Source of the DNA: Escherichia coli
GTDB taxonomy: Bacteria > Pseudomonadota > Gammaproteobacteria > Enterobacterales > Enterobacteriaceae
Strand: one strand, 5' to 3'
Length of the DNA stretch: 64,000 nt
NCBI RefSeq assembly: GCF_013315695.1
Contig: NZ_CP054353.1
Positions 20,803 to 48,921 of this stretch are shown piece after piece. Position numbers and translations under genes: made by a program. Under the pieces are notes generated by a model, which saw only the letters and a list, made by a program, of their open reading frames with translations, did no database searches and was not told the origin of the DNA. Every line of letters starts with the position of its first letter. Within the stretch, counting starts at the first letter, position 1.

Positions 20803-20830
20803 AGTTGTTTTCCTGTATGAAAAACCATTA

Positions 20831-20868: not shown

Positions 20869-20887
20869 TAAAGAGGCTGGCGTAAAA

Positions 20888-22480
<1,593 letters not shown>

Positions 22481-22488
22481 ATATCTGA

Positions 22489-22516
22489 TGGCCGACGCGA
22501 AGTCGGCCATTTTTTT
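22489..22516 (+). terminator. Rho-independent terminator after grpE
   Basis: tggccgacgcgaagtcggcca hairpin plus TTTTTTT; the T run overlaps the stop codon of the convergent acidic ORF. Confidence 0.7.
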
Positions 22517-23156: not shown

Positions 23157-23240
23157 TATTGCATTGTGAAGTAAAAGGAAGGAATTGATGGAATCCTAAA
23201 AGGCGGCGATAAGAAAGGCGAACCGGAGCTCGCCACTGTA

Positions 23241-24503: not shown

Positions 24504-24547
24504 CGTAGTAGTAGAAATGTGTTCCAGGGGAAACTCCTTTTCTGGGT

Positions 24548-25339
24548 TTAGCTGATTAACTGCTGGACAATTCGGCTGCCGAAGTAGGCCAGTGTCAGAA
24601 TGACTGCACCCGCAACGTTAAACCAGACGACGCGGCGTCCACGCCATCCTTCATGATAATGTCCCCACAGCAGCACAATATAGACAAACCACGCCACGAT
24701 AGAGAGCACTGCCTTGTCGATATTTTCCATGCTAAATAAGTTGTGCATGTAGAACAGGCCAGTGCAAAGAGTGAGCGTTAGCAGCACCACGCCAATCTGC
24801 GTGATGTGGAACATTTTACGCTCGATACTCATCAATGGCGGCATTTCCTGGTTAAACGCCAGTTTCTTGTTCTTCAGTTGGTAATCAATCCACGCCAGTT
24901 GCAGCGCGTACAGGGCGGCGATAATTAGCGTGGCATAGGAAAAGAGCGATAAGCCAATGTGCACCAGCATCCCAGGCGTTGCTTCCAGATGGGTGATGTA
25001 TTCATTGGGCATGAAGGTCGCCAGCGCCAGGTTGATAAGCGCAAAGGCATAGACAATGGGTAGCAGCAACCAGCCACGATTGCGAGAAGCCACAATGGTC
25101 ATTACCGTACAGATCATCAAACTGACCAATGAACCAACGTTCAGCAGGCTGAGGTTTTGTCCGCTATCACCGTCGGGCAGGATGCGGGCTTCCAGAGCGA
25201 TTGCGTGGCAGACCAGCGCAATGACCGCAGAAATAATAGCCATGCGCCGCCAGCCGCCGTTTTTTTGCAGCAGACCGGGAACAATCAGCGCAAGACTGAC
25301 GGAGTAGGCGACAAGCGCGAGCAGAGCAAAAACGGGCAT
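24548..25339 (-). CDS. ypjD: Inner-membrane protein YpjD (cytochrome c assembly-like)
   Basis: Multi-TM protein, about 263 aa from internal Met (track ORF extends to 25414). Confidence 0.8.
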   Translation of the reverse strand: MPVFALLALVAYSVSLALIVPGLLQKNGGWRRMAIISAVIALVCHAIALEARILPDGDSGQNLSLLNVGSLVSLMICTVMTIVASRNRGWLLLPIVYAFALINLALATFMPNEYITHLEATPGMLVHIGLSLFSYATLIIAALYALQLAWIDYQLKNKKLAFNQEMPPLMSIERKMFHITQIGVVLLTLTLCTGLFYMHNLFSMENIDKAVLSIVAWFVYIVLLWGHYHEGWRGRRVVWFNVAGAVILTLAYFGSRIVQQLIS

Positions 25340-25505
25340 AGTAATGTCGACAGTTTGAGCAATAAGAAAGAGAAGCAGTATAGCGTCAGGTGAACGCTGC
25401 TCCAACCGTTGCATAACAACAAAGACGCCTTCATGTTATACTGCGGCAAAATACTGATGATGTGTCGCGATTGCGGCCAACCGTTTCCACCCCAGGCGAG
25501 AGACA

Positions 25506-26867: not shown

Positions 26868-26925
26868 ATGACCTTATGCGACAGAGTTATTAACTGCTGA
26901 TTGCATTTTCTCCAGAAATCAGTAA

Positions 26926-27252
<327 letters not shown>

Positions 27253-27270
27253 TCTGTCACGGTGGTCATG

Positions 27271-27819
27271 ATGAGCAAACAACTCACCGCGCAAGCACCT
27301 GTTGATCCCATCGTTTTGGGAAAAATGGGTTCGTCTTACGGTATTCGTGGGTGGCTCAGAGTGTTTTCTTCCACCGAAGACGCCGAAAGCATTTTTGACT
27401 ATCAGCCCTGGTTTATCCAGAAGGCGGGTCAGTGGCAGCAAGTCCAGCTGGAAAGCTGGAAGCACCACAATCAGGACATGATCATCAAGCTGAAAGGCGT
27501 TGACGATCGTGATGCGGCGAACCTGCTGACGAATTGTGAAATTGTCGTGGATTCATCGCAGTTGCCTCAGCTTGAAGAGGGTGACTACTACTGGAAAGAC
27601 TTGATGGGCTGCCAGGTAGTAACCACTGAAGGCTACGATCTCGGTAAAGTCGTCGATATGATGGAAACCGGATCTAATGACGTTCTCGTCATTAAGGCAA
27701 ACCTGAAAGATGCGTTTGGTATCAAGGAACGTCTCGTACCGTTCCTCGATGGGCAGGTTATCAAGAAAGTCGATCTCACTACTCGTTCAATCGAAGTAGA
27801 TTGGGATCCTGGTTTTTAA
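27271..27819 (+). CDS. rimM: Ribosome maturation factor RimM
   Basis: 182 aa from MSKQLTAQ. Confidence 0.9.
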
Positions 27820-27849
27820 ACCACCGGATAAACGGTAAAAGACGGCGCT

Positions 27850-28617
27850 ATGTGGATTGGCATAATTAGCCTGTTTCCTGAAATGTTCCGCGCAATTACC
27901 GATTACGGGGTAACTGGCCGGGCAGTTAAAAATGGCCTGCTGAGCATCCAGAGCTGGAGTCCTCGCGACTTCACGCATGACCGGCACCGTACCGTGGACG
28001 ATCGTCCTTACGGCGGCGGACCGGGGATGTTAATGATGGTGCAACCCTTGCGGGACGCCATTCATGCAGCAAAAGCCGCGGCGGGTGAAGGCGCAAAGGT
28101 GATTTATCTGTCACCACAGGGACGCAAGCTTGATCAAGCGGGCGTCAGCGAACTGGCAACGAATCAAAAATTGATTCTGGTGTGCGGTCGCTACGAAGGT
28201 ATAGATGAGCGCGTGATCCAAACCGAAATTGACGAAGAATGGTCAATCGGCGATTACGTTCTCAGTGGTGGTGAGTTACCAGCAATGACGCTGATTGACT
28301 CCGTTTCCCGGTTTATTCCGGGAGTACTGGGACATGAAGCCTCGGCAACGGAAGATTCCTTTGCTGAAGGATTGCTGGATTGCCCGCACTATACGCGGCC
28401 TGAGGTGTTAGAAGGGATGGAAGTTCCGCCAGTGTTACTGTCGGGCAACCATGCCGAGATACGTCGCTGGCGTTTGAAACACTCGCTGGGCCGTACCTGG
28501 CTTAGAAGACCTGAACTTCTGGAAAACCTGGCTCTGACTGAAGAGCAAGCAAGGTTGCTGGCGGAGTTCAAAACGGAACACGCACAACAGCAACATAAAC
28601 ATGATGGGATGGCGTAA
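27850..28617 (+). CDS. trmD: tRNA (guanine37-N1)-methyltransferase TrmD
   Basis: 255 aa [13 protein letters not shown]. Confidence 0.95.
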
Positions 28618-28655
28618 GCCCCCGAGATATCAGTTTACCCAGGATAAGAGATTAA

Positions 28656-29006
<351 letters not shown>

Positions 29007-29036
29007 GATTTCGCTAAAGCGACATCCTGTTAAGAA

Positions 29037-29068
29037 GGGCTGGCCAATTGGCTGGCCCTTTTTTTATC
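29037..29068 (+). terminator. Rho-independent terminator of rpsP-rimM-trmD-rplS operon
   Basis: GC-rich imperfect hairpin gggctggccaattggctggccc followed by TTTTTTT. Confidence 0.55.
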
Positions 29069-29082
29069 TGTTTGCTCGTGTT

Positions 29083-29565
29083 TTAAGGGGTTGTAATCAC
29101 CACTGCGACGCGGCGGTTCTCGGCGCGGCCCTGGGCGGTCTTGTTACTGGCTATGGGATATTTTTTTCCTAAACCCTGTGTGGTGAGATTGCTGCGCGGA
29201 ATTTGTCCACCCATAGCCCATGCATCGGCCACGACATTCGCCCGTTTTAATGATAAGACTTCGTTGTAACTGTCTTCACCATAGTTGTCGGTGTGTCCAT
29301 CCATACGGGCATGTGTTAGCCCTGTCGAGGCCAATTTGGCTGCCATGGTTTGGATTTGTTGCTGGCTTTCCGGGAGCAATTTGTAGTCATTTTTTGCGAA
29401 CAGAATGGCATCTGATAAGCCCAGCGACCAGTCGCCGGCGGATTCAGTAAATCCATAAGATTGCATAGCGGCGACTTGCTCAGGAGTAAACTTTCCCTGA
29501 GGGGACTGGCAGCCAGTAAGTATTAGCGAGGTGAAAATCAGGGGTGCTACCAGGTGCTTTATCAT
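29083..29565 (-). CDS. yfiB: OmpA-family lipoprotein YfiB
   Basis: 160 aa, lipobox LTGC, OmpA-like C-terminus. Confidence 0.9.
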   Translation of the reverse strand: MIKHLVAPLIFTSLILTGCQSPQGKFTPEQVAAMQSYGFTESAGDWSLGLSDAILFAKNDYKLLPESQQQIQTMAAKLASTGLTHARMDGHTDNYGEDSYNEVLSLKRANVVADAWAMGGQIPRSNLTTQGLGKKYPIASNKTAQGRAENRRVAVVITTP

Positions 29566-29580
29566 ATCGATATATCCTTG

Positions 29581-30807
29581 TTATCTCACCAGCTTTTCGG
29601 CACGCTGGTGTTTGGCCTGATACATATTGTGATCGGCAAGCTCTTGTAAATTTTCCGCAGAGGCGTGCTCAATGGTCATCGCGTAACCAATGCTTAATGT
29701 CATGGTAGTCTGATGGCCATTATGAAGATCAAACGGGAGATTAAAAATTTGTGTCAGTGCTGAGCATATCTGCTGCACTTCAGATTCCGATTGTACATCA
29801 TAGAGCACCATAGCGAATTCATCGCCGCCCAGGCGGTATGCTTTATGTCGCAGCCCGCCAAATTCAGTTAACCGTTTTGCTATTTCAATCAAGACTCTAT
29901 CGCCCGTCGCATGACCCCAGGTATCATTGATATATTTGAAATTATCGCCATCAAGAAATAGTAACGCCGACGTTTTTCGGGCATCGGAATTGTTCATCAA
30001 CGTGTTGATGCCGCTACGAAACGCTGCGCGGTTAGCCAGCCCGGTTAATGGGTCATGTAGCGCGGTACGTAGAAGCTGCGCATTTTTGGCCTGTAAACGA
30101 AGCTGCCACTCTTCCATTTCATCCAGCAGACTGTTGAAGTCGAGAGCGAAGCGGTGAAACTCAGCGATACGTTCTTCCGAAACTCGTCGGGAAAAATTGC
30201 GGTTAGAACGCACATCATGTACGACATCGGTGATATTTTTCAGCGCTTCCACCAGGCCATTGTGCAAATGGCGGGTGAGGGTAATTGCGATGCCTGATGC
30301 CAGCAGAATACAACCGGTCAGGACAGCGAGCGAAAACCAGATAAAATGGCTGATTGAACTGTCGCGAGCAGTTAAGCGTACTTCGCCAATGGTTTCACCA
30401 TTGTGACGAATCGGCTGAGTGATGGGGGCAGGGAAGAGCCAGTGGCTTATGAAATTGCTGAAAGTATCGCCTGGATCCTTACGGGTGTAATGCCAGGATG
30501 CCAGAATATTTTGCTGCTTATCACGCACTTCTGCAGTTGAAAATTGCCCTTGCTTCCCCAGCGCTGCCAGTGTTTGAGTTGCTGCAGGGCCATCGGCAAA
30601 AACGACCGCTGCTTCCAGACTGTAAGTCATTGTTGCTGCTGTCAGTGCCAGGTTTTTTTGCGCGTACTGTTTCAGGGTCAGCACCGAGGTCACGGAAAGC
30701 AGCAACCAGATCAGCATCATAGTGATAAATATGCTGGTCATACTGATGTTGCGTAATGCTCTTTTAAACGTGGGGCGCTTATTAAGAGAATTATCGTTAT
30801 CCATCAT
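29581..30807 (-). CDS. dgcN: Diguanylate cyclase DgcN (YfiN)
   Basis: 408 aa; TM-HAMP-GGDEF with GGDEF motif. Confidence 0.9.
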
Positions 30808-31315
30808 TTTTCTTCCGTGCGAGCATTAAGACATCCGGGTTGACCTTTACACCGCTACGCGATAAGGCATCCAGGTTTACGGCAAATCTGACGTCATTAT
30901 TGTGGATGATTAGACAAAAGGCGCTACCAATAATGCATTCGGTATTTTGTTCGGCAATTAATAATAACGCCTTTGACGGATATTGTTCGGTTAATTCCAT
31001 CTGGAATATCGGTGACTCGTTGCCAAAATAAAAACCATTGCAGCCTGAAATCATCGCCTCTTGTTGAGTGTGAATGATGACAGGTAGATAAGGCAAAGAT
31101 GTCGTGCCATTCTCTTGTAGGGCGTTACTAAAATGTGAAGATGAAAAGATACATAACTTTGGTGGCCCTGATAGCGCAGGCCAGCGGGTGTAACTGACAA
31201 TACCGGAAACCATCATACGCACGTTTTTCGCAACGTCAGAAGGTTCCTGAGCGAGTATTGGTGCTCCCGTCAGCAGGAGAATCAGCAGTAAGAACAGTCG
31301 GTGAGAAAAACGCAT
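30797..31315 (-). CDS. yfiR: Periplasmic repressor of DgcN, YfiR
   Basis: 172 aa with signal peptide; overlaps dgcN start. Confidence 0.85.
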
Positions 31316-31464
31316 TCAGGGATCCTCACCATCTTCGCTCGAAATGCATCGATATTTTTTAAGAATGCTCATTAAAATATCATTCTTTCATGCGGTCGTC
31401 ATCAATGTGAGAAATAAAACACAATGAGTAGAATCTCATGTTTAATTTATTTGTGGGGGTTTAA

Positions 31465-31830
31465 TTAATTTAATCGTATTGTGCTGGCATTTTCATCAGC
31501 CCCTTTTTGCCATACTTCATGCAGTTGGCTGGCATTTTCAACATTGTTGCAGCTGGCAGGAAAGCTTTTACCGGAAAGTCCTCGGGCATAAGTAAAATCG
31601 GTCTGGCAAGTTTTCTTTTGTCCTTCGGCATATCCTTTAAGGTATAGACCGCGATCCGCCTGTGAATCGCTAAATGCATCGTCATCTTTTATGGCGTTGC
31701 CCGATATCGCATCTTCCATACCAACATCATACCAGTCGGTGCTGGTCAAGGTTGGCGCGTGAGTATAAGGATCAATCTGACATCCGCTAACCAGTAAAGC
31801 CAACAAGGGGGCGATAAACTTTTTCATCAT
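31465..31830 (-). CDS. yfiL: Lipoprotein YfiL
   Basis: About 121 aa from MMKKF; lipobox LVSGC. Confidence 0.75.
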   Translation of the reverse strand: MMKKFIAPLLALLVSGCQIDPYTHAPTLTSTDWYDVGMEDAISGNAIKDDDAFSDSQADRGLYLKGYAEGQKKTCQTDFTYARGLSGKSFPASCNNVENASQLHEVWQKGADENASTIRLN

Positions 31831-31876
31831 TTCTTTCTCCTTTTTCAAAGCATAGCGGATTGTTTTCAAAAGGTGG

Positions 31877-31946
31877 TGTAAATTTATTTATACATAAACA
31901 AGGGTTAAAAGCGCGAATAAATTGTTTGTGTAAAGAAAAATGTACG
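31877..31946 (+). promoter_or_regulatory. TyrR boxes in aroF promoter
   Basis: tgtaaatttatttataca at 31877-31894 (TGTAAA-N6-TTTACA-like) and tgtaaagaaaaatgtacg at 31929-31946. Confidence 0.65.
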
Positions 31947-32040
31947 AAATATGGATTGAAAACTTTACTTTATGTGTTATCGTTACGTCATCCTCGCTGA
32001 GGATCAACTATCGCAAACGAGCATAAACAGGATCGCCATC

Positions 32041-33111
32041 ATGCAAAAAGACGCGCTGAATAACGTACATATTACCGACGAACAAGTTTTAATGACTCCG
32101 GAACAACTGAAGGCCGCTTTTCCATTAAGCCTGCAACAGGAAGCCCAGATTGCTGACTCGCGTAAAACCATTTCAGATATTATCGCCGGGCGCGATCCTC
32201 GTCTGTTGGTAGTATGTGGTCCTTGTTCCATTCATGATCCGGAAACTGCTCTGGAATATGCTCGTCGATTTAAAGCCCTTGCCGCAGAGGTCAGCGATAG
32301 CCTCTATCTGGTAATGCGCGTCTATTTTGAAAAACCCCGTACCACTGTCGGTTGGAAAGGGTTGATTAACGATCCCCATATGGATGGCTCTTTTGATGTA
32401 GAAGCCGGGCTGCAGATCGCGCGTAAATTGCTGCTTGAGCTGGTGAATATGGGACTGCCACTGGCGACGGAAGCGTTAGATCCGAATAGCCCGCAATACC
32501 TGGGCGATCTGTTTAGCTGGTCAGCAATTGGTGCTCGTACAACGGAATCGCAAACACACCGTGAAATGGCCTCCGGGCTTTCCATGCCGGTTGGTTTTAA
32601 AAACGGCACCGACGGCAGCCTTGCAACGGCTATTAACGCTATGCGTGCCGCCGCCCAGCCGCACCGTTTTGTTGGCATTAACCAGGCAGGGCAGGTTGCG
32701 TTGCTACAAACTCAGGGGAATCCGGACGGGCATGTGATCCTGCGCGGTGGTAAAGCGCCGAACTATAGCCCTGCGGATGTTGCGCAATGTGAAAAAGAGA
32801 TGGAACAGGCGGGACTGCGCCCGTCTCTGATGGTAGATTGCAGCCACGGTAATTCCAATAAAGATTATCGCCGTCAGCCTGCGGTGGCAGAATCCGTGGT
32901 TGCTCAAATCAAAGATGGCAATCGCTCAATTATTGGTCTGATGATCGAAAGTAATATCCACGAGGGCAATCAGTCTTCCGAGCAACCGCGCAGTGAAATG
33001 AAATACGGTGTATCCGTAACCGATGCCTGCATTAGTTGGGAAATGACCGATGCCTTGCTGCGTGAAATTCATCAGGATCTGAACGGGCAGCTGACGGCTC
33101 GCGTGGCTTAA
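32041..33111 (+). CDS. aroF: Tyr-sensitive DAHP synthase AroF
   Basis: 356 aa from [15 protein letters not shown]. Confidence 0.95.
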
Positions 33112-33121
33112 GAGGTTTATT

Positions 33122-34243
33122 ATGGTTGCTGAATTGACCGCATTACGCGATCAAATTGATGAAGTCGATAAAGCGCTGCTGAATTTATTAGCGAAGCGTC
33201 TGGAACTGGTTGCTGAAGTTGGCGAGGTGAAAAGCCGCTTTGGACTGCCTATTTATGTTCCGGAGCGCGAGGCATCTATGCTGGCCTCGCGGCGTGCAGA
33301 GGCGGAAGCTCTGGGTGTACCGCCAGATCTGATTGAGGATGTTTTGCGTCGGGTGATGCGTGAATCTTACTCCAGTGAAAACGACAAAGGATTTAAAACG
33401 CTTTGTCCGTCACTGCGTCCGGTGGTTATCGTCGGTGGTGGCGGTCAGATGGGACGTCTGTTCGAGAAGATGCTGGCACTCTCGGGTTATCAGGTGCGGA
33501 TTCTGGAGCAACATGACTGGGATCGCGCAGCTGATATTGTTGCCGATGCCGGAATGGTGATTGTTAGTGTGCCCATCCACGTTACTGAACAAGTTATTGG
33601 CAAATTACCGCCTTTACCGAAAGATTGTATTCTGGTCGATCTGGCATCAGTGAAAAATGGGCCATTACAGGCCATGCTGGCGGCGCATGATGGTCCGGTG
33701 CTGGGGCTACACCCGATGTTCGGTCCGGACAGCGGTAGCCTGGCAAAGCAAGTTGTGGTCTGGTGTGATGGACGTAAGCCGGAAGCATACCAATGGTTTC
33801 TGGAGCAAATTCAGGTCTGGGGCGCTCGGCTGCATCGTATTAGCGCTGTCGAGCACGATCAGAATATGGCGTTTATTCAGGCTCTGCGCCACTTTGCTAC
33901 TTTTGCTTATGGGCTGCACCTGGCAGAAGAAAATGTTCAGCTTGAGCAACTTCTGGCGCTCTCTTCGCCGATTTACCGCCTTGAACTGGCGATGGTTGGG
34001 CGACTGTTTGCTCAGGATCCGCAGCTTTATGCCGACATTATTATGTCGTCAGAGCGTAATCTGGCGTTAATCAAACGTTACTATAAGCGTTTCGGCGAGG
34101 CGATTGAGTTGCTGGAGCAGGGCGATAAGCAGGCGTTTATTGACAGTTTCCGCAAGGTGGAGCACTGGTTCGGCGATTACGCACAGCGTTTTCAGAGTGA
34201 AAGCCGCGTGTTATTGCGTCAGGCGAATGACAACCGTCACTAA
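33122..34243 (+). CDS. tyrA: Chorismate mutase / prephenate dehydrogenase TyrA
   Basis: 373 aa [20 protein letters not shown]. Confidence 0.95.
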
Positions 34244-34285
34244 TAATCCAGTGCCGGGTGATTCACATCATCCGGCACCTTTTCA

Positions 34286-35446
34286 TCAGGTTGGATCAAC
34301 AGGCACTACGTTCTCACTTGGGTAACAGCCCAATACCTTCATCGAACGGGTGATGTCCCCTAACTCTTTCAATGCTTTTTGCATTTCCGCTGATTCAAGA
34401 TTGGCCTGAATATCCAGATAAAACATCTCTTCCCATGGATTACCGTGAATCGGGCGTGACTCCAGACGGGTCATAATCAGATTGTGGTTGCGCAGTACCA
34501 GCAACGCTTCAACCAGCGCACCAGCTTGTTGCCCGGTCGCCATTAACAACGTCGTTTTCGCTGGAACCTGGTCAGACACGTTAATGGCTTTACGTGCCAA
34601 CACCACAAATCGGGTGAAGTTTTGTCGCTGATTCGCTTCAATACGCTCCAGTACCTGCAAACCGTACAAAGTGCCGCCAGCTTCGCTTCCCAACGCAGCA
34701 ACATGCGGTGATTTTGCCTGTGCAACCTTTTCCATTGCCGCAGACGTACTTTCGGTATATTCAATCTTCCAGTGCGGATAACGATTAAGGAATTTGCTGC
34801 ATTGCTGGAATGGCTGCGGATGGCTGTAGACCGTATTGATGGTGGATAAATCAGTAGTGCCGGAGACCAACAAACAATGGTCGATAGTTAACGTCATCTC
34901 GCCAACAATCGACAAACTGGTATGTTGCAGCAGATCGTAAACGTCGTTTATGGCACCGGAGCTGGTATTTTCAATCGGTACGACGGCATAGTCGGCCTGG
35001 CCGGTTTCCACCTGATTAAAAATATCGGCAAATTTGGCGCAGCCACTTTCAATGAATTGCTCAAAGTGACGCGCAGCGTACTGACGAGCGGCAAGATGTG
35101 AATAGGAGCCTTTGGGGCCGAGAAAAGCGATGCGTGCTGAGTGCGGATTAATTTTATTGAGATGTTGCTGGAGCAGTGCCTGCTGAGTTAATACGGAATC
35201 TTCAATGATGAGCTGGAACAGGCGAGTAATGTAATGGGCGTCCAGATGGTGCGCTTTACCGAGCGTAATTAATCTTTCCAGCAAATCGCGTTCGCGATCA
35301 ATATTACGTACCGGGCGATGCGAGAGCAGTTTGGCTTTTCCCACCTCGACGGCCAGTTCGCGTCGCTCTGCCAGTAATGCTAATAATTTTTCATCCAGCG
35401 CGCTGATTTTCTCTCGCAGCGCCAGTAACGGGTTTTCCGATGTCAT
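34286..35446 (-). CDS. pheA: Chorismate mutase / prephenate dehydratase PheA
   Basis: 386 aa [22 protein letters not shown]. Confidence 0.95.
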
Positions 35447-35465
35447 AGTGTTGCCTTTTTGTTAT

Positions 35466-35498
35466 CAATAAAAAAGGCCCCCCGATTTGGGAGGCCTT
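35466..35498 (-). terminator. pheA attenuator terminator
   Basis: Minus strand ggcctcccaaatcggggggcc hairpin plus TTTTTTATT between pheL and pheA. Confidence 0.75.
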
Positions 35499-35544
35499 AT
35501 TGTTCGTCTTCGCATTCTGTTTCACACGACGAAACGCCTCCCAT

Positions 35545-35592
35545 TCAGGGGAAGGTAAAAAAGAATGCGAAGAAAAACGGTGTGTGTTTCAT
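35545..35592 (-). CDS. pheL: pheA leader peptide PheL
   Basis: MKHTPFFFAFFFTFP*; seven Phe codons; K-12 as recalled has Ile at position 4. Confidence 0.85.
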   Translation of the reverse strand: MKHTPFFFAFFFTFP

Positions 35593-35695
35593 GTTTGTTT
35601 CCTTAAGTGACTTTAGTACAGTACCCGTACTGTTTTCACGCTGTCAACAAAAAACGCGCCCGAAGGCGCGTTGGCGATACACTCAATATAAAGGA

Positions 35696-36091
<396 letters not shown>

Positions 36092-36283
36092 TCAAAATGT
36101 GTGATGGAAATCTCATAATTTTGTCACTTTTTGTCAACGAATCTTTTTTGTGAGAAATCGCAGGAAGAGGTGTTTTTTACTTGAGGAATATCTCAAAGCG
36201 AGCCATATTTGATGAGATCGATAGTGACTAAATCGCTTCAGTTTCACAACTAACAGAATAAAAAAACGGCAGCTCAAGGGCTG

Positions 36284-37709
36284 TAATGCCAGTCAGTTAA
36301 GCAACTGACTGGCTCTTTTTCGGGGCTGTGGGGTATTTCCAGGGCCTCTCCTTTACCACTCTCGGGAAGGCCCTTTCCCTTCTTGTCGGTAATTTCACAA
36401 GTTGTCCCATACTTGCAAGATCGCGCATCAGCTCCGGTATACGTCCCGGTGAAGCGCCCTGCAATGTCATCAGCATTCTCATCACCATTCCGCATGATTC
36501 TGAGAAACTCAGTTGATTCGGCCAGTAACCTTTCAGATGTTCCGCCATTTTAATCATCTGATATCTCACCAGATTATAAGCCAGTAAGACACCCCACAGC
36601 TCTTGCTCCACAAGCTCCGGTTTTTTACTTCTCAGCGTCAGCCTGCTCAGTTGCATCGTCTGTTTTATCTCCCTGTATCCCAGTTCGATTTCCCAGCGAT
36701 GACTGTACAGATCCGCCATTTCTCCTCCGGGGAAGCGCATGGCGTCCGTCATCGACGTCAGCAGATGGCAGACTTTTCCTTTGCGCGTCACGGTCAGCAG
36801 GCGGGCTGTCACTTCATTTCCCAGTCCCGGCCACTTTTTTCGTGCCTGCGGGCTGGTTTTCAGCTTCACCAGATGATCGCCTTTACCCAGTTTTCTGATC
36901 TCTTCATATTGCGCTCCCTTTCTGAGAGGTATCATCCAGTGGCGGTGTTCTCCCGCCAGGCTCCAGGCATTTAACAGTCCCAGTGAGTAATAACCTTTAT
37001 CCATTAACGTCAGAGTGTTATCGCCGGTTTGTTCTATAAGTTGCTCAGCAAGCTCATTTTCGCTGTTCTTCATCGTGCCGAAGGCTGCAGCCGTCAGCAG
37101 ATGGCTGGTCAGTTCCATCTGGCAGACCATTTTGACCTGCGGGTAGAGCGCCGGGTTCCCGGCATGTGTCTGGCGGGGGAAGGCTGCATCGTTCTCTGGT
37201 GTATCCGGTGTGCGCCAGAACACACCATCGATGGCCAGCAGGGTCAGGCCGCACCAGTGCGGATGCGGCGTGGCGTTATGCCAGAGCTGCGCTGTTTTCG
37301 TGAACACGCGGCGGACAGCCTCACTTCCCAGGCGCTGGCGGGCCTGAATAACGGCACTGGGGGCAACGAAGGGGCGATTGCCCGGCAGCATGATGTCCAG
37401 GCGATTCACAATCTGGTGAAGAGGTTCTTTACGCTCAAGCGCCATGCCAACAATACACCAGACCATCATTTCGAGGGGAAGACGGCGCTTGCGTAGCGTT
37501 ACAGTACCTGATTCGGCAAGGCAACGAGAGATGAGTTCGGGGTCGAGGTAATCCCCCAGAGAAGTCAGTGGGTTACGCAGAGAATCGTAACGGGATACCA
37601 GATCAAGAGCCTGTCCAATGTGCATAAAAAAATCCGGAAACAAGTGAGCGTTTCCGGATTCTTACACAGCCACTGGATCGGTCAACTGATCCTTAACTGA
37701 TCGGCATTA
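36284..37709 (-). mobile_element. IS4 insertion sequence, 1426 bp, complete
   Basis: Terminal inverted repeats taatgccagtcagttaag / taatgccgatcagttaag at both ends; encodes IS4 transposase; no flanking direct repeat. Confidence 0.9.
36297..37625 (-). CDS. insG: IS4 transposase
   Basis: About 442 aa from [19 protein letters not shown] (track ORF 448 aa). Confidence 0.9.
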
Positions 37710-37750
37710 CAGCCCGAAGGCTGGCATTTTTAAATCAGATAAAGTCAGAC

Positions 37751-39064
<1,314 letters not shown>

Positions 39065-39135
39065 TCACTAGTTAAACTGAAACTCCAGACAAACAACGCG
39101 TACCCAGGGTACGCGTTGCCGTTCTAACTTTTTTC

Positions 39136-40788
<1,653 letters not shown>

Positions 40789-41000
40789 TTAGGTTGAAAA
40801 GACGATGGAATAACCAGGACGGGAAAGCAGTATACCCGAACATGACCTGTGCCACAAACTTTCATTATCCCTCCTCTTCGCCAGCGCACTATTGAAATCA
40901 GGAGTGAGAAAATAGCCCCTTTGGGGTAAATGTTTTTGACGCAAATCAAGCGCTTGTCATTTAAAAAATGACACAAATGGCGCTTGACCACGTAATTCCC

Positions 41001-41792
41001 TTAGAGATCAATTTCCTGCCGTTTTACCTGTTGCCAGACTTCTTCCATTGTTTCGAGGTCAACACCTGTCATTTCCAGTCCACGCGCGGCAACAATACGC
41101 TCCACTTCGCGAAAACGGCGCTCGAATTTTTCATTGGCTTTTTGTAGTGCAATCTCTGCTTTTGTCCCTAAATGGCGGGCCATGTTGACCGTGGCAAACA
41201 GCAGGTCACCCATTTCCTCCTCCAGTTTAGCCTGGTCGACAACAGCCTGCCGCGCCTCGTACATCACCTCGTCGATCTCTTCGTAGACTTTATCGACTAC
41301 CGGACCAAGCGTCGTCCAGTCGAAACCAACGTTGGCGCAACGTTTCTGGATTTTTTGCGCACGCATTAAAGCCGGTAAACTACGAGGAATATCGTCCAGC
41401 GCCGAATGCTGCGCTTTCTGCGCGCGCTCTTCGGTTTTGATTTGCTCCCAACGGGCAAGCACTTCACTACTGTTTTCGGCAGAACTGTCAGCAAAAACAT
41501 GCGGATGGCGACGTTCTAATTTATCGCTGATCGCGGCGCAAATATCATTAAAGTCAAAGCGCCCTTCTTCCTGGGCCATTTGTGCGTAAAACACCACCTG
41601 GAACAGCAGATCGCCCAGTTCACCGCGCAGATCGTCAAAATCTTCACGGGCGATGGCGTCCAGCACCTCGTAGGTTTCTTCAAGGGTGTAAGGCGCAATG
41701 GTGGCAAATGTCTGCTCTTTATCCCACGGGCAGCCGTTTTCCGGATCGCGCAGGCGCTGCATAATAGTGAGCAAACGGTCGATTTGATTCAT
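41001..41792 (-). CDS. mazG: Nucleoside triphosphate pyrophosphohydrolase MazG
   Basis: 263 aa; tandem MazG domains with repeated EExxE motifs. Confidence 0.9.
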   Translation of the reverse strand: MNQIDRLLTIMQRLRDPENGCPWDKEQTFATIAPYTLEETYEVLDAIAREDFDDLRGELGDLLFQVVFYAQMAQEEGRFDFNDICAAISDKLERRHPHVFADSSAENSSEVLARWEQIKTEERAQKAQHSALDDIPRSLPALMRAQKIQKRCANVGFDWTTLGPVVDKVYEEIDEVMYEARQAVVDQAKLEEEMGDLLFATVNMARHLGTKAEIALQKANEKFERRFREVERIVAARGLEMTGVDLETMEEVWQQVKRQEIDL

Positions 41793-41863
41793 TAGAATGT
41801 CCTGAAAATTGCGGGTCTGTCAGGTGGAAACCTGTGACCAGAATAGAAGTGAGTTAGTAACAC

Positions 41864-42199
41864 CTAGCCAATCAGCACGTTAATTTTGGCTTTAATGAGT
41901 TGTAATTCCTCTGGGGCAACCGTTCCTTTCTTCGTTACTCCTCTTGCCCGCCAGGCGATTCTTTTTACCTGATCAGCTAACGCTACGCCATCACGTTCCT
42001 GACCGGATAGAACAACTTCAAACGGATATCCTTTTGATTGCGTTGTACAAGGAACACACAGACACATACCTGTTTTGTTGTTGTACATGAACGGACTGAG
42101 GACAACAGCCGGACGATGTCCGGCTTGCTCGCTACCTTTTGTCGGGTCAAAATCAACCCAAATCAGATCGCCCATATCGGGTACGTATCGGCTTACCAT
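41864..42199 (-). CDS. mazF: mRNA interferase toxin MazF
   Basis: 111 aa [35 protein letters not shown]. Confidence 0.95.
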   Translation of the reverse strand: MVSRYVPDMGDLIWVDFDPTKGSEQAGHRPAVVLSPFMYNNKTGMCLCVPCTTQSKGYPFEVVLSGQERDGVALADQVKRIAWRARGVTKKGTVAPEELQLIKAKINVLIG

Positions 42200-42447
42200 T
42201 ACCAGACTTCCTTATCTTTCGGCTCCCCCCAGTCGATATTCTCGTGGAGGTTTTCCGGCGTGATGTCGCTGACCAGTTCAGCAAGCGTAAATACGGGCTC
42301 TTTACGTACTGGCTCAATAATTAATTTGCCATCCACCAGGTCAATCTTCACTTCATCATCAATATTCAGATTGAGCGCCTGCATTAACGTAGCTGGGATC
42401 CGCACTGCAGGAGAATTTCCCCAACGCTTTACGCTACTGTGGATCAT
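42199..42447 (-). CDS. mazE: Antitoxin MazE
   Basis: 82 aa [25 protein letters not shown]; overlaps mazF start. Confidence 0.95.
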
Positions 42448-42524
42448 AACCCTTTCCTCAAACCGCTATCATATGTAGATACAGTATATATCAATCTACA
42501 TTGTAGATACGAGCAAATTTCGGC

Positions 42525-44759
42525 CTAACTCCCGTGCAACCGACGTGCGTCGATAACATCCGGCACCTGGTTGAGTTTACCCAGCACGCGGCCCAGCACT
42601 TGCAGGTTGTAAATCTCAATGGTCATGTCGATGGTCGCCAGTTGCTGTTTGGTGTCGCTACGGCTGGCAACGCCAAGCACGTTCACTTTCTCATTGGCGA
42701 GAATGGTTGTGATATCACGTAACAACCCACTACGATCATTAGCCACCACGCGGACCACCAGCGAATATCCGGCGGAGTAGCTCTCGCCCCATACCGCATC
42801 AACAATACGTTCTGGCGCATGGGAGCGCAGTTCCGCTAGTTGTTCGCAATCGGCGCGGTGTACTGAAATACCGCGTCCCTGAGTAATGAAACCAACTATT
42901 TCATCACCAGGAATCGGCTGGCAGCAGCGCGCGATGTGGTGCATCAGGTTACCGACACCTTCAACCACCACACGACCGTTATCTTTACTGCGGTTTTGCG
43001 GCGTATAGCTTTTTTGCTGAAGTTGCTTCAGCGCGGCGGCATCCTGCTCTTCGGCACTCGGCTTATTAAATTGCGATTGCAGGAAGTTCACCATCTGATT
43101 GAGACGGATATCCCCGCCACCAATCGCCGCCAGCAACTCGTCGACATCATTGAAGTTGTAACGCGGCAGCAGATGTTTTTCTGCTTCTTTCAGGCTGATC
43201 CCCAGATGTTCCAGCTCGTCGTCAAGGATTTGCCGCCCAGCCAGAATGTTTTTGTCACGGTCCTGTTTACGGAACCAGGCGTGAATTTTCGAACGCCCAC
43301 GGCTGGTTGTGACGTAACCGAGGTTTGGGTTTAACCAGTCACGGCTGGGGTTCGGCTGTTTCTGGGTGATAATTTCAATCTGGTCGCCCATCTGCAGCTG
43401 GTAGGTGAACGGCACAATGCGCCCGCCAATTTTTGCCCCGATGCAGCGGTGTCCGACATCACTGTGGATGTGGTAAGCGAAGTCCAGCGGTGTTGATCCC
43501 GCAGGCAAATCAACGACATCACCTTTCGGCGTAAAGACGTACACCCGGTCGTCAAAGACCTGGCTACGTACTTCGTCGAGCATTTCGCCGGAATCAGCCA
43601 TCTCTTCCTGCCACGCAATCAGTTTACGCAGCCAGGCAATCCGGTCTTCATGTCCCGAACGTGCGCCGCCAGCTGCCGCGCCCTCTTTATATTTCCAGTG
43701 CGCAGCAACACCCAACTCTGCATCTTCATGCATCTGTTTAGTGCGGATTTGGATCTCTACGGTTTTGCCACCCGGCCCCAGAACCACGGTATGAATAGAC
43801 TGATAACCGTTTGGTTTCGGGTTAGCGACGTAATCGTCAAACTCATCCGGCAGGTGGCGATAGTGAGTGTGCACTATCCCCAGTGCGGCATAACAATCCT
43901 GTAAACGCTCGGCGACAATACGTACCGCACGCACATCAAACAGCTCATCGAAGGCGAGGTTCTTTTTCTGCATTTTGCGCCAGATGCTGTAGATATGTTT
44001 CGGTCGACCATACACTTCAGCTTTAACGCCTTCAGCTTTCATCTCAGCGCGCAGATGACCGACAAACTCTTCGATATAGTGTTCGCGGTCGAGACGGCGT
44101 TCATGCAGCAGTTTTGCGATGCGTTTGTATTCGGTCGGGTGGAGATAACGGAAGCAGTAATCTTCCAGCTCCCATTTCAGTTGTCCAATCCCAAGACGGT
44201 TCGCCAACGGCGCGTAGATATTGGTGCACTCTTTTGCCGCCAGTACGCGTTCATCTTCCGGCGCGTCTTTTACTTCGCGCAGATGAGCAATACGCTCTGC
44301 CAGTTTGATGACCACGCAGCGAAAATCATCGACCATCGCCAATAACATCCGGCGAACGTTATCGACCTGTTCGGAGGAAACAGAATCGGTATGCGTCGCT
44401 TTCAGCTGGCGGATCGCCGCCATATCACGCACGCCGTGAATAAGGTTAACGACCGACTTACCGACGCTCTCACGCAGCACATCTTCGCTGACTACGTTGG
44501 CATCGGCCAGAGGGAACAGCAGCGCCGCCCGCAGCGTGTCAATGTCCATACTTAATGTCGAGAGGATCTCCACCATCTCAACACCACGCCACAATAACAG
44601 ACTGGCATCCGGATGCCCCTGCGTCTGTTGCAGACAATACGCCCAGGTTTCGGCTAAGCACTCACACGACTTCTGGCTGGTAATACCCAGACTTGCGATC
44701 CATTTTTCCGGATCAAATTCACCAGCCTTATTGATATGTGCACTTCTTACCGCAACCAT
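42525..44759 (-). CDS. relA: (p)ppGpp synthetase RelA
   Basis: 744 aa; synthetase, TGS and ACT regions. Confidence 0.95.
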   Translation of the reverse strand: MVAVRSAHINKAGEFDPEKWIASLGITSQKSCECLAETWAYCLQQTQGHPDASLLLWRGVEMVEILSTLSMDIDTLRAALLFPLADANVVSEDVLRESVGKSVVNLIHGVRDMAAIRQLKATHTDSVSSEQVDNVRRMLLAMVDDFRCVVIKLAERIAHLREVKDAPEDERVLAAKECTNIYAPLANRLGIGQLKWELEDYCFRYLHPTEYKRIAKLLHERRLDREHYIEEFVGHLRAEMKAEGVKAEVYGRPKHIYSIWRKMQKKNLAFDELFDVRAVRIVAERLQDCYAALGIVHTHYRHLPDEFDDYVANPKPNGYQSIHTVVLGPGGKTVEIQIRTKQMHEDAELGVAAHWKYKEGAAAGGARSGHEDRIAWLRKLIAWQEEMADSGEMLDEVRSQVFDDRVYVFTPKGDVVDLPAGSTPLDFAYHIHSDVGHRCIGAKIGGRIVPFTYQLQMGDQIEIITQKQPNPSRDWLNPNLGYVTTSRGRSKIHAWFRKQDRDKNILAGRQILDDELEHLGISLKEAEKHLLPRYNFNDVDELLAAIGGGDIRLNQMVNFLQSQFNKPSAEEQDAAALKQLQQKSYTPQNRSKDNGRVVVEGVGNLMHHIARCCQPIPGDEIVGFITQGRGISVHRADCEQLAELRSHAPERIVDAVWGESYSAGYSLVVRVVANDRSGLLRDITTILANEKVNVLGVASRSDTKQQLATIDMTIEIYNLQVLGRVLGKLNQVPDVIDARRLHGS

Positions 44760-44806
44760 CGTCCTCTCCTTTAGGGACCAGACCTGCCGAAATCGGCAAA
44801 TCGTAA

Positions 44807-46108
44807 CTATTTAACGCGCGAGAAAAGTACCATCGATTCCAGATGTCCCGTGTGTGGGAACATATCCAGCATCGCCAGTCGCGCAATGGTATATCCTGCT
44901 TTTAATAACGCTTCGCTATCCCGAGCCAGCGTTGCAGGATTACAGGATACATAAACTATACGAATAGGTTCCAGTTTTATAATTTGCTGCATAACACCTG
45001 CGGCACCTGCTCGCGCCGGGTCCAGCAACACTTTATCGAAGCCGTTTTTCGCCCACGGCTGCTTTGTGACATCTTCTTCAAGATTTTCGTGATAAAACGT
45101 CACATTGTGTAAGCCATTAAGACGCGCATTCTGCTGGCCTTTTTCCACCAGCGCCGGAACACCTTCTACACCCACCACACTGGCAGCTTGTGTCGCCAAT
45201 GGCAGTGTAAAGTTGCCCATACCGCAGAACAGATCCAGTACGCGATCTTCAGGTTGTACATCCAGCCATTCCAACGCACGCGCTACCATTTTTTGGTTCA
45301 CACCCGCATTGACCTGAATAAAATCGCGCGGGCTAAAAGTTAAGCGCAACCCGTTTGAGTCATACCAGGGCATCTCACCAGAGACGGTTTCGAGTATCTC
45401 ACTATCGGGGGCGAGATACAGATCCAGTCCTTCAGAATGCGAAAAGCGTTCCAGTTTTTCGCGATCTGCCGAACTTAGCGGTGCGGTATGGCGCAAAATC
45501 ATCAGCGTGCCGCTGGTTGCCTGTACCAGTTCAACATGACCAAGATGGCGCATAGCTTGTAAGCTGCCCAGGCATGCCCTGACTTTGGGCAGCAATGCTT
45601 CAAGTTGGGGCACTAAAATGGGGCATTGTTTAACGTCGACAATGTCACTGGAGCCCGCTTTGCGAAACCCCATCTGAAGTTGCTGTGTTTTCGGTAAGTA
45701 GTTCAGACTTAAACGCGCGCGACGGCGATAGCCCCAGGGAACATCGGCGATCACTTCAGAGACTTCGTGTTTCATTAATCGGGCGAGTGCCGCACTTTTG
45801 CTTCGCTGCTGTAAATCCACACTGGCGTGTTGTTGCTGACAGCCGCCGCATACGCCAAAATGAGGGCAGCGTGGCGTTTCGCGTTCCGGGCTATCGCTTA
45901 ACCGGCGCACGACTTTAGCGCGGGCGTATTGTTTTTTATCTTCAGTAACAGTAACTTCCGCGTTTTCCTGTGGCAATAATCCAGGAATAAATAACGTTTT
46001 GCCGTTATGTCGCGCCACGCCCTGACCAAAAGAGTCGAGGTCATTGACTGAAACGGTTATGATCTGACGCGTCGTCGTGTGTCGTTTTGCAGAGTAGAAT
46101 TGCGCCAT
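44807..46108 (-). CDS. rlmD: 23S rRNA m5U1939 methyltransferase RlmD (RumA)
   Basis: 433 aa; TRAM domain, Cys cluster, SAM-binding motif. Confidence 0.9.
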
Positions 46109-46164
46109 TGGCGAGACTTTCTCAATTTAACAGTGTGACCTTAATTGTCCCATAACGGAACTCC

Positions 46165-48921
46165 ATGACCAACTACAGCCTGCGCGCACGCATGATGATT
46201 CTGATCCTGGCACCGACCGTCCTGATTGGTTTATTGCTGAGTATCTTTTTCGTCGTGCATCGCTATAACGACTTGCAGCGTCAACTGGAAGATGCCGGTG
46301 CCAGCATTATTGAGCCGCTTGCAGTTTCTACTGAATATGGCATGAGCCTGCAAAATCGCGAATCTATCGGTCAGTTAATAAGCGTACTGCATCGCCGCCA
46401 TTCCGATATTGTTCGCGCAATTTCGGTTTATGATGAAAATAACCGACTCTTTGTCACCTCCAATTTTCATCTTGATCCTTCATCAATGCAGCTCGGTAGC
46501 AACGTGCCGTTTCCTCGCCAGCTCACTGTCACACGTGACGGCGATATTATGATCCTCCGCACGCCGATTATTTCTGAGAGTTACTCCCCCGACGAATCGC
46601 CCAGTAGCGATGCCAAAAATAGTCAAAATATGTTGGGATATATTGCGCTTGAGCTGGATCTTAAATCGGTTCGCTTGCAGCAATATAAAGAGATCTTTAT
46701 TTCCAGCGTGATGATGCTGTTTTGTATCGGTATTGCGCTTATTTTTGGCTGGCGCTTAATGCGCGATGTAACCGGTCCGATTCGCAATATGGTGAATACC
46801 GTCGACCGCATCCGTCGCGGGCAACTCGACAGCCGGGTGGAAGGATTTATGCTCGGCGAGCTGGATATGCTGAAAAACGGTATCAACTCGATGGCAATGT
46901 CGCTGGCTGCTTATCACGAAGAGATGCAACACAATATCGACCAGGCGACGTCCGATCTGCGTGAAACGCTGGAGCAAATGGAGATTCAGAACGTTGAGTT
47001 GGATCTGGCGAAAAAGCGCGCCCAGGAAGCGGCGCGTATTAAATCCGAGTTTCTGGCAAATATGTCACACGAGCTGCGTACACCACTGAATGGTGTTATT
47101 GGCTTTACCCGCCTGACGCTGAAAACAGAATTAACACCAACGCAGCGCGATCACCTGAATACGATTGAACGTTCGGCAAATAATTTGCTGGCAATTATTA
47201 ATGATGTTCTCGACTTCTCGAAACTGGAAGCCGGTAAGCTGATTCTGGAAAGTATTCCATTCCCACTACGCAGCACGCTGGATGAAGTCGTTACCCTGCT
47301 GGCACATTCTTCTCACGATAAAGGGCTGGAACTGACGCTCAATATTAAAAGCGACGTGCCTGATAACGTGATCGGCGACCCACTACGATTACAGCAAATC
47401 ATCACTAACCTGGTGGGGAATGCAATTAAATTCACCGAGAATGGCAACATTGATATTCTGGTAGAAAAACGTGCGCTGAGTAATACCAAAGTGCAAATTG
47501 AAGTGCAGATTCGGGATACCGGCATTGGTATTCCTGAACGCGATCAATCGCGCTTATTCCAGGCCTTCAGACAGGCTGATGCCAGTATTTCCCGCCGTCA
47601 TGGTGGCACCGGGCTGGGGCTGGTGATTACACAAAAACTGGTTAATGAAATGGGCGGTGATATTTCGTTCCATAGCCAGCCGAATCGTGGTTCAACTTTC
47701 TGGTTCCACATTAATCTCGATCTGAACCCGAACATTATTATCGAAGGGCCATCCACCCAGTGCCTCGCCGGTAAGCGCCTGGCCTATGTCGAACCAAATT
47801 CCGCAGCAGCGCAATGCACGCTGGATATTTTAAGTGAAACGCCGCTGGAAGTGGTTTATAGCCCAACGTTCTCCGCGCTGCCTCCCGCGCATTACGACAT
47901 GATGTTATTAGGCATAGCGGTGACCTTCCGCGAGCCGCTAACAATGCAACATGAGCGATTAGCGAAAGCAGTATCGATGACCGATTTCCTGATGCTGGCA
48001 CTTCCTTGCCATGCACAAGTCAATGCTGAAAAACTTAAGCAAGATGGTATCGGCGCGTGTCTGCTGAAACCATTAACACCTACGCGCCTGTTGCCTGCCC
48101 TGACGGAATTTTGTCATCACAAACAAAACACGCTTTTGCCTGTAACCGATGAAAGTAAGCTGGCAATGACAGTCATGGCGGTTGATGACAACCCCGCTAA
48201 CCTGAAACTTATCGGCGCATTGCTGGAAGATATGGTGCAACATGTGGAACTTTGCGATAGCGGGCATCAGGCGGTTGAACGGGCGAAACAGATGCCGTTC
48301 GATTTGATCTTAATGGATATTCAAATGCCGGACATGGATGGCATTCGGGCCTGCGAACTCATCCACCAACTCCCGCATCAGCAACAAACGCCGGTTATCG
48401 CGGTAACGGCGCATGCAATGGCCGGGCAAAAAGAGAAGCTGCTTGGCGCAGGGATGAGCGATTATCTGGCGAAACCGATTGAAGAAGAGCGATTGCATAA
48501 TTTGTTGTTGCGCTACAAGCCTGGCAGCGGTATTTCCTCTCGCGTCGTGACGCCCGAAGTCAACGAAATTGTGGTGAACCCGAATGCGACCCTCGACTGG
48601 CAACTGGCACTACGCCAGGCAGCAGGAAAAACCGATTTAGCGCGCGATATGCTGCAAATGTTACTCGATTTCCTGCCTGAAGTTCGCAACAAAGTTGAGG
48701 AACAGCTGGTTGGAGAAAACCCGGAAGGCCTGGTTGATTTGATTCATAAACTGCATGGCAGTTGCGGCTATAGCGGTGTGCCGCGTATGAAGAATCTCTG
48801 CCAACTGATCGAACAACAGCTACGTAGCGGTACTAAAGAAGAAGATTTGGAGCCGGAGCTGCTGGAACTGTTAGACGAGATGGATAATGTAGCGCGCGAA
48901 GCCAGCAAAATTCTCGGGTAA
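46165..48921 (+). CDS. barA: Tripartite sensor histidine kinase BarA
   Basis: 918 aa; two TM helices, HAMP, HisKA (HELRTP), ATPase, receiver and HPt domains. Confidence 0.95.

Follow-up and report, generated by a model that had tools for sequence, protein, structure and literature searches.

An Undamaged relA–mazE–mazF–mazG Locus in Escherichia coli with mazEF as a Probable Accessory Cassette

The toxin–antitoxin genes mazEF lie next to relA in many E. coli chromosomes, and this raises the question of whether such a neighbourhood is a single stringent-response unit or an operon into which mazEF has been inserted. The locus considered here belongs to a stretch of 64,000 nucleotides of E. coli contig NZ_CP054353.1 (assembly GCF_013315695.1), referred to below as the window. 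An initial annotation had described it as an intact stringent-response/toxin-antitoxin cluster organised as in K-12. Judged from sequence comparison, it is almost certainly the orthologous, undamaged E. coli relA–mazE–mazF–mazG operon, in which mazEF probably forms an accessory cassette and the activities of the products can be presumed from those of K-12.

The identities proposed for the four genes are borne out, far outside chance, by NCBIfam equivalog scores well above the model cutoffs. RelA matches NF008124 over residues 1–744 with 1678 bits (cutoff 728), whereas its score against the SpoT model NF008303, 472 bits, falls below the cutoff of 947. The full set of Pfam domains is found in this protein, namely HD_4 (the pseudo-hydrolase HD domain), RelA_SpoT (synthetase), TGS, RelA_AH_RIS and ACT_4. 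MazE matches NF007312 with 194.3 bits (cutoff 113) and PF04014 with 52.9 bits (24.7), and it has the layout of an N-terminal AbrB/SpoVT-type DNA-binding domain followed by a C-terminal MazF-binding tail. For MazF, the corresponding values are 223.8 bits against NF007386 (cutoff 120) and 82.7 bits against PF02452 (23.1). MazG scores 369 bits with NF007113 (cutoff 208) and 418 bits with TIGR00444, and PF03819 is matched in two stretches, which correspond to two tandem MazG domains. Structural records give a similar picture: MazE is identical at 81 of 82 residues to the MazE of PDB entries 1MVF and 1UB4, the single change being N60S, and MazF at 109 of 111 residues to that of 3NFC, 5CK9 and 1UB4, the only changes being S80R and A88V. 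By these matches, the pair is a MazEF type II toxin–antitoxin system, made of the E. coli MazE and MazF equivalogs. From the 98–99% identity to characterised proteins, we infer that it would share their ACA cleavage, growth arrest, neutralisation by MazE and degradation of the antitoxin by ClpAP/Lon. The features of the locus are collected in Table 1.

Table 1. Features of the relA–mazG locus, in positions of the window.
Feature	Position	Strand	Basis
relA, ribosome-dependent (p)ppGpp synthetase (GTP diphosphokinase), 744 aa	42525-44759	minus	ORF list; NF008124
relA–mazE spacer, 77 bp; in K-12 the mazEF promoter/operator region and mazE Shine–Dalgarno	42448-42524	minus	K-12 comparison
Alternating palindrome ATCTACA-A-TGTAGAT-N13-ATCTACA; in K-12 the MazE/MazEF operator (putative here)	42474-42508	minus	Inverted repeats I1 and I2; direct repeat D1
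mazE, type II antitoxin, 82 aa	42199-42447	minus	ORF list; NF007312; PF04014
mazF, ACA-specific endoribonuclease toxin, 111 aa	41864-42199	minus	ORF list; NF007386; PF02452
mazF–mazG spacer, 71 bp	41793-41863	minus	K-12 comparison
mazG, nucleoside triphosphate pyrophosphohydrolase, 263 aa	41001-41792	minus	ORF list; NF007113/TIGR00444; PF03819
mazEF cassette extent, ~0.69 kb	41834-42524	minus	Alignment of window, K-12 and two mazEF-less genomes
Region homologous to K-12 antisense RNA aMEF (ameF, b4844)	42159-42558	plus	K-12 annotation 2911051-2911450

The organisation of the locus is that of K-12 MG1655. Genes b2784, b2783, b2782 and b2781 have the same order, lengths and strand relationship, and mazEF is located downstream of relA and upstream of mazG, as the initial annotation had stated. 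The antitoxin gene directly precedes the toxin gene, and both are read from the minus strand, as is the whole cluster, a detail that the annotation did not mention. The reported overlap of mazE and mazF is likewise the K-12 one and amounts to a single nucleotide, common to the stop codon of the former and the start codon of the latter within ...TGG TAATG GTA.... All four open reading frames are full, and comparison with K-12 shows zero internal stops in relA, mazE, mazF and mazG, so that their description as complete was correct. In isolate AF3, identical DNA is annotated by RefSeq as relA, mazE, mazF and mazG. A 5-kb region around the locus is matched at 95–100% identity in 5,425 of 5,426 complete E. 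coli genomes, where the same genes are annotated.

Some features of the window lie outside the cluster. The window is not collinear throughout with AF3, despite 100% identity, and the break in collinearity pointed to an IS4 junction, raiA–IS4–eno. This hybrid IS4 copy is placed 3.3 kb from the cluster and marks an inversion of about 160 kb relative to the closest genomes, for which a reciprocal bamD–IS4–ygcG junction is predicted. Additionally, at the window's left end, a P2-like prophage adjoins ssrA.

The phrase "as in K-12" holds for organisation only, as the sequences differ: DNA identity between the window and the K-12 genes is about 97%, with four amino acid changes over MazE, MazF and MazG. 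RelA has 63 nucleotide differences, all silent, and zero amino acid differences; its protein record, WP_000226815.1, is common to other E. coli. MazE carries N60S, with six silent changes and one replacement, and MazF carries S80R and A88V, with nine silent changes and two replacements. In mazG, 25 codons are changed, and the only replacement is L204M. From these silent and replacement counts, purifying selection is evident on all four genes. Further differences concern the spacer between mazF and mazG, which is 71 bp in the window and 70 bp in K-12 owing to one additional G that follows the mazF stop codon, and the bases directly before the mazG ATG, which read TTCTA instead of ATTCA. The number of ACA sites also differs, with 8 in mazF of the window versus 9 in K-12 (one self-cleavage site is lost) and 11 versus 6 in mazG.

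The replacements in the toxin bear on whether the pair is functional. The initial annotation had suggested aligning MazE and MazF with their K-12 counterparts and inspecting the catalytic residues. This was done, and its reading was not overturned: in alignment with K-12 and PDB MazF sequences, E24, R29 and T52 are retained, and differences occur solely at residues 80 and 88. E24A is the standard inactive MazF mutant (PMC5888573), while in the E. coli enzyme R29 and T52 are the residues at the phosphate that is cut (PMC10864209). Another paper (PMC10893535) was considered as a source for the E. coli residues and rejected; its R29 and T52 belong to the MazF of Symbiobacterium.

A system with intact frames might nevertheless be functionally altered or attenuated, through a weakened toxin, a changed affinity between the partners or a shifted RNA preference. 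The S80R change is non-conservative and adds a charge three residues past Q77, a residue that, by our own reasoning from the alignment, corresponds to D75–Q76 near the third base in the MazF–SEA model (PMC10864209). The allele is also found in a minority of complete genomes, since mazEF DNA at least 99% identical to that of the window occurs in 52 of 4,418 of them, and both O157:H7 and CE10 have the K-12 MazF allele rather than that of the window. Several observations argue against such an alteration, however. No change affects E24 or the catalytic residues, the MazF equivalog score is nearly twice its cutoff, and silent changes in mazF outnumber replacements nine to two. The exact MazE, MazF and MazG proteins are each present on at least 1000 public contigs, and the record of the MazF protein is titled 'MULTISPECIES ... 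Enterobacteriaceae', so that for MazF the contig count points to a widespread, maintained allele. Moreover, residues i and i+3 of a beta strand have their side chains on opposite faces, and residue 80 would thus probably point away from the RNA groove. An altered or attenuated pair is therefore considered very improbable. The more specific proposal that MazE N60S and MazF S80R+A88V form a co-adapted pair of minority E. coli lineages, with altered affinity or a shifted RNA preference, is regarded as an extremely improbable one; if it were true, the MazEF of this lineage would be measurably unlike the K-12 system.

The region between relA and mazE is where regulation of the pair may be sought. 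All 77 of its 77 positions are identical to K-12, compared with about 97% identity in the flanking genes. The promoter palindrome whose confirmation had been recommended is present within it (Table 1), identical to that of K-12. This alternating palindrome, in which the central arm is able to pair with either outer arm, occurs in exact form once in the window and in none of 100 shuffles, and it represents a putative MazE/MazEF operator. Promoter function in the K-12 spacer was described by Marianovsky 2001, as cited by PMC5888573, and the assignment of a promoter to the window is putative, made entirely from K-12 identity. A sigma-70 consensus scan gave two matches versus a shuffled mean of 4.5 and did not pick out the known P2 and P3 promoters. 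Because this result was below the shuffled level and the one spacer match overlaps the start codon of mazE, the −35 and −10 boxes of mazEF were left unassigned.

A scan for terminators returned 7 candidates, close to the chance mean of 5.0, with none on the minus strand between the relA, mazE, mazF and mazG genes. Together with spacers of 77 and 71 bp, this is consistent with a single relA–mazEFG transcription unit. In K-12, co-transcription of relA–mazEF and of mazEFG was reported (PMC8749433; PMC7167474).

Such an arrangement invites the idea of an integrated stringent-response module, in which the mazEF promoter is shut off by RelA-made ppGpp, the unstable MazE is lost, and MazF is released to cause programmed cell death, the linkage to relA being adaptive. 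This model was published by Aizenman 1996 and in later papers, according to the summaries in PMC7167474 and PMC1626106. A distance of 77 bp separates mazEF from relA upstream of it, and the minus strand carries no terminator-like site in that interval; this agrees with the model insofar as it is consistent with co-transcription, and the perfectly conserved spacer could be taken in the same way. At a divergence of about 3%, however, zero differences in 77 bp have a chance expectation of about 10%, so the conservation of the spacer is weak evidence. The distribution of mazEF among genomes weighs against the model.

The pair is found at the relA–mazG site in 4,415 of 5,426 complete E. coli genomes (about 81%), whereas in about 1,010 (about 19%) relA lies directly beside mazG without mazEF. 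These mazEF-less genomes carry an identical RelA protein, again WP_000226815.1, and their matched span is 763 bp versus 1401 bp in the window. It was considered that mazEF might merely be divergent in the roughly 1,000 genomes and missed by megablast; this was ruled out by sensitive blastn and alignment, which showed true absence and a different short spacer. Among loci of this type (AGR6137 and AR_0104 were examined, and UTI89 is known from the literature), relA and mazG are as in the window. AGR6137 and AR_0104 also share the sequence of the window as far as the relA stop codon and again over the final ~42 nt ahead of mazG. What differs is the interval between them: the mazEF-less loci have a 95-nt relA–mazG spacer, in which an unrelated stretch of about 53 nt with a hairpin (AGCTGGATA...TATCCAGC) stands in place of the cassette. 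The G+C content is about 47% over mazEF versus 51–55% in relA and mazG.

Because about 1,010 complete genomes have relA next to mazG without mazEF, the pair is best regarded as an accessory cassette that entered a relA–mazG operon, and not as an intrinsic component of stringent control. A review says the same of mazEF and treats its linkage to relA as positional (PMC7167474). The label of a stringent-response/toxin-antitoxin cluster implies a functional unit, which the positional linkage and the absence of mazEF from about 19% of genomes make doubtful. The integrated module appears quite unlikely.

What the cassette does for the cell is disputed, with stress response, cell death, phage defence and selfish persistence all proposed, and the literature is in disagreement about its benefit (PMC7167474). 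One possibility is that its main role is phage defence by abortive infection and that the neighbourhood of relA is incidental. The same review reports that deletion of mazEF raises P1 infection loads (PMC7167474), and a patchy, cassette-like distribution is typical of accessory defence genes. On the other hand, the window gives no evidence for this role: the locus is flanked by housekeeping genes and not by a defence island, and published support is limited. Phage defence as the main role is, on balance, rather unlikely.

Under the reading of mazEF as an accessory cassette in an undamaged operon, and by analogy with K-12, the products would act as follows. RelA would synthesise (p)ppGpp on stalled ribosomes, and MazG would function as a nucleoside triphosphate pyrophosphohydrolase. 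MazF would be a ribosome-independent endoribonuclease, cutting single-stranded RNA at ACA by means of R29 and T52. MazE would serve as a protease-labile antitoxin, with its C-terminal tail blocking the MazF dimer, while its AbrB-type domain, alone or within the MazE–MazF complex, would repress the operon by binding the alternating palindrome ahead of mazE. Translation of mazE and mazF may be coupled through the base that the two genes share. In addition, the mRNA that encodes MazF could itself be cut by the toxin at ACA, and the antisense RNA aMEF could tune expression.

The function of aMEF as an antisense RNA on mazEF was described previously (PMC8749433). The homologous region of the window is identical to K-12 at 392 of 400 positions, and the 52 nt that precede its start hold two changes. 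An Rfam scan of positions 38000–48000 on both strands, with E-values up to 1, gave no matches; aMEF has no Rfam family, and the scan is thus uninformative on this RNA.

Related toxin–antitoxin systems should be distinguished from this locus. E. coli has another chromosomal pair of the MazEF family, chpBIK (ChpS/ChpB), whose products belong to the same protein families. This second pair is a paralogue and not the locus in the window, because MazE scores only 35 bits against the ChpS model (cutoff 101) and MazF 52 bits against the ChpB model (cutoff 129), far under both cutoffs. Plasmid systems such as pemIK of R100 and kis-kid (parD) of R1 likewise have a toxin of the PemK/MazF fold family (PF02452) and two overlapping genes, the antitoxin gene coming first. 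In blastn searches, eight plasmid records (for instance, H85) gave weak matches of 60–80% identity to mazF. The mazEF of the window differs from these systems in being chromosomal, between relA and mazG, and has about 69% DNA identity to the plasmid mazF-like genes.

Both the intact relA–mazEF–mazG cluster and the variable presence of mazEF in E. coli are already known, the latter from published work, and the stretch holds nothing new in this respect. As mazEF is among the most studied toxin–antitoxin systems, the significance of the locus beyond correct annotation is slight. The minority alleles, if they behaved differently, would make a modest addition to the natural variation in toxin–antitoxin pairs. 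The presence of mazEF informs on the accessory gene content and lineage of a strain, and it places this one outside the mazEF-less set.

The relA-mazE-mazF-mazG cluster was described in the initial annotation as intact and arranged as in K-12, and this finding is correct, ordinary and already known. An open-reading-frame listing over 39000-47000 recovered four complete frames exactly at the annotated places, and a codon comparison with K-12 MG1655 found no internal stop in any of them. At the mazE/mazF junction, the minus strand reads ...GTC TGG TAATG GTA AGC...; the mazE stop and the mazF start therefore have one base in common within TAATG, which bears out the annotated overlap. The mazEF pair lies downstream of relA and upstream of mazG, with rlmD and barA on one side of the cluster and pyrG and eno on the other, the same genes and neighbours as in K-12.

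All four proteins score well above the cutoffs of their NCBIfam equivalog models. RelA does not reach the SpoT model's cutoff, and MazE and MazF lie far under those for ChpS and ChpB, the paralogous second pair of E. coli. The Pfam content is as expected, comprising HD_4, RelA_SpoT, TGS, AH/RIS and ACT in RelA, MazE_antitoxin in MazE, PemK_toxin in MazF, and two MazG stretches in MazG.

Features of the relA-mazG cluster and its surroundings (differences are relative to K-12 MG1655)
Feature	Position	Strand	Description	Nucleotide differences	Protein differences	NCBIfam bits (cutoff)
relA	42525-44759	minus	complete ORF, 744 aa	63	0	1678 (728)
mazE	42199-42447	minus	complete ORF, 82 aa	7	N60S	194 (113)
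mazF	41864-42199	minus	complete ORF, 111 aa	11	S80R, A88V	224 (120)
mazG	41001-41792	minus	complete ORF, 263 aa	26	L204M	369 (208)
mazEF cassette	about 41834-42524		~0.69 kb, from alignment with mazEF-less genomes
Palindrome	42474-42508		35-nt pattern
aMEF counterpart	42159-42558	plus	392/400 identical to the K-12-annotated antisense RNA
Antisense frame	42038-42478	plus	predicted, 146 codons, TTG start
P2-like prophage	1-16641		late genes (tail sheath, tape measure, gpD-like, baseplate)
ssrA	about 16642-17004		tmRNA gene
Distant AF3 match	16642-36384		opposite orientation, ~160 kb off
Main AF3 match	36261-64000		99.98% match
IS4 left flank	36270-36283		14 bp, raiA terminator, CAGCTCAAGGGCTG
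IS4	36284-37709		1426 bp
IS4 right flank	37710-37723		14 bp, eno terminator, CAGCCCGAAGGCTG
eno terminator side of IS4	37710-37750		insertion 41 nt past the eno stop codon

Gene-by-gene comparison with the K-12 MG1655 locus showed that silent changes outnumber replacements in each gene, which indicates purifying selection. All E. coli genomes examined share one RelA protein accession, whether or not they carry mazEF. Between relA and mazE, the 77-bp spacer matches K-12 at 77/77 positions. The mazF-mazG spacer measures 71 bp, versus 70 bp in K-12, and differs slightly at either end. In a search of solved structures, MazF differs at the same two residues from PDB 3NFC, 5CK9 and 1UB4, and MazE at one residue from 1MVF and 1UB4. 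In E. coli MazF, Arg-29 and Thr-52 touch the cleavage site (PMC10864209), and the E24A variant serves as an inactive control (PMC5888573). E24, R29 and T52 are all kept here, the only changes being at residues 80 and 88, so the alignment revealed no inactivating catalytic substitution.

The promoter palindrome expected upstream of mazE was likewise recovered, as the only match to the full 35-nt pattern in the window and with none in 100 shuffles. Its ATCTACA/TGTAGAT arms are separated by one base, the central arm can also pair with a further ATCTACA(T) lying 13 nt beyond it, and the outer ATCTACA copies are direct repeats of each other spaced 28 bp apart. Judged by its sequence, this arrangement is the "alternating palindrome" that Marianovsky et al. 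2001 described (cited in PMC5888573). Consensus scans for promoters and terminators performed at or below chance level and failed to pick out the known promoters; Rfam gave no match within 38000-48000.

By analogy with work on K-12 (PMC10864209, PMC5888573, PMC7167474), MazF would act as a ribosome-independent, ACA-specific endoribonuclease, which MazE would bind and block until degraded by ClpAP and Lon. Both MazE and the MazE-MazF complex would repress transcription at the palindrome, and MazF would also be expected to cut its own message. There are two ACA sites in mazE, as in K-12, 8 in mazF against 9 in K-12 (T93 is ACG here and ACA there), and 11 in mazG against 6; all these changes in count (41001-42199, minus strand) are silent. 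The antisense RNA aMEF, reported to raise mazEF expression (PMC8749433), has a closely similar counterpart. The predicted antisense frame running across mazF and mazE overlaps the aMEF region and is also open in K-12 (4931-5371 of the reference locus).

The exact MazF, MazE and MazG sequences each occur on at least 1000 contigs, under record names such as "MULTISPECIES: endoribonuclease MazF [Enterobacteriaceae]". The MazF protein allele of K-12 is present in O157:H7 and strain CE10, and a third allele occurs in strain GF131. At the DNA level, the allele of mazEF and its promoter is a minority one, with 52 of 4,418 matching complete genomes at least 99% identical. A 5-kb query (40500-45500) found matches of 95-100% identity in 5,425 of the 5,426 complete E. 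coli genomes, with relA, mazE, mazF, mazG, rlmD and pyrG annotated beneath them. Because only five of the 5,426 (AF3, MSB1_4I, MS 21-1 and two others) reach 99% identity over this region, the lineage is uncommon; AF3, a UK blood-culture isolate, is among the 100% matches. In the genomes at least 99% identical, a 10-kb query containing IS4 found 13-18 matching places, which suggests that the lineage carries at least a dozen copies of IS4.

The window is not collinear with AF3, its nearest complete relative. The two AF3 matches meet at an IS4 copy that joins the terminators of raiA and eno, a junction also found in strain TW10690. In AF3, two IS4 copies lie ~160 kb apart in opposite orientation, each bordered on both sides by its own 14-mer. 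Since the flanks are mismatched here, the element looks like a hybrid formed by recombination between the inverted copies, and the raiA...ygcG segment has apparently been inverted; in AF3 this segment holds cys genes, type I-E cas genes and CRISPR arrays. It does not include the relA-mazG cluster, which is 3.3 kb away from the joint and remains unaffected. The insertion falls within the eno terminator hairpin, where IS4 takes the place of the T-run expected after the stem on the eno transcript, as it does in AF3. The P2-like prophage adjoins ssrA; the same site in the otherwise near-identical AF3 holds a P4-like satellite with IS1 and a gene for a NACHT-domain protein instead.

A megablast search with mazEF and its promoter matched 4,418 of the 5,426 complete genomes. 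A more sensitive blastn query of 1.4 kb, from the mazG end through mazEF to the relA end, matched 5,425, of which 4,415 cover at least 80% of it. The remaining matches are split into two pieces that together cover 51% of the query, extend over 763 bp rather than 1401 bp, and have only relA and mazG annotated beneath them; relA is thus followed directly by mazG in ~1,010 of the 5,426 genomes. Two such strains, AGR6137 and AR_0104, were aligned together with K-12 and the window; likeness ends just past the relA stop and returns ~42 nt before the mazG start. Where the window has mazEF, their 95-nt spacer (positions 594-688 of both loci) contains ~53 nt of unrelated sequence that include a hairpin, AGCTGGATA-N12-TATCCAGC. 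G+C content is ~47% over mazEF against 51-55% in relA and mazG.

The absence of mazEF from between relA and mazG has already been published and is quantified here: in strains without these systems, such as UTI89, "relA-mazG ... form undisturbed bicistronic operons", and the insertion probably happened independently of function (PMC7167474). What mazEF does physiologically is contested, the proposals being cell death linked to the stringent response, reversible stasis, defence against phage and selfish persistence (PMC7167474), and the window bears on this dispute solely through the presence/absence pattern. "Intact" thus says something real but modest, namely that the strain is one of the ~81% of complete genomes with the cassette, and the pattern argues against an obligatory tie of mazEF to relA.
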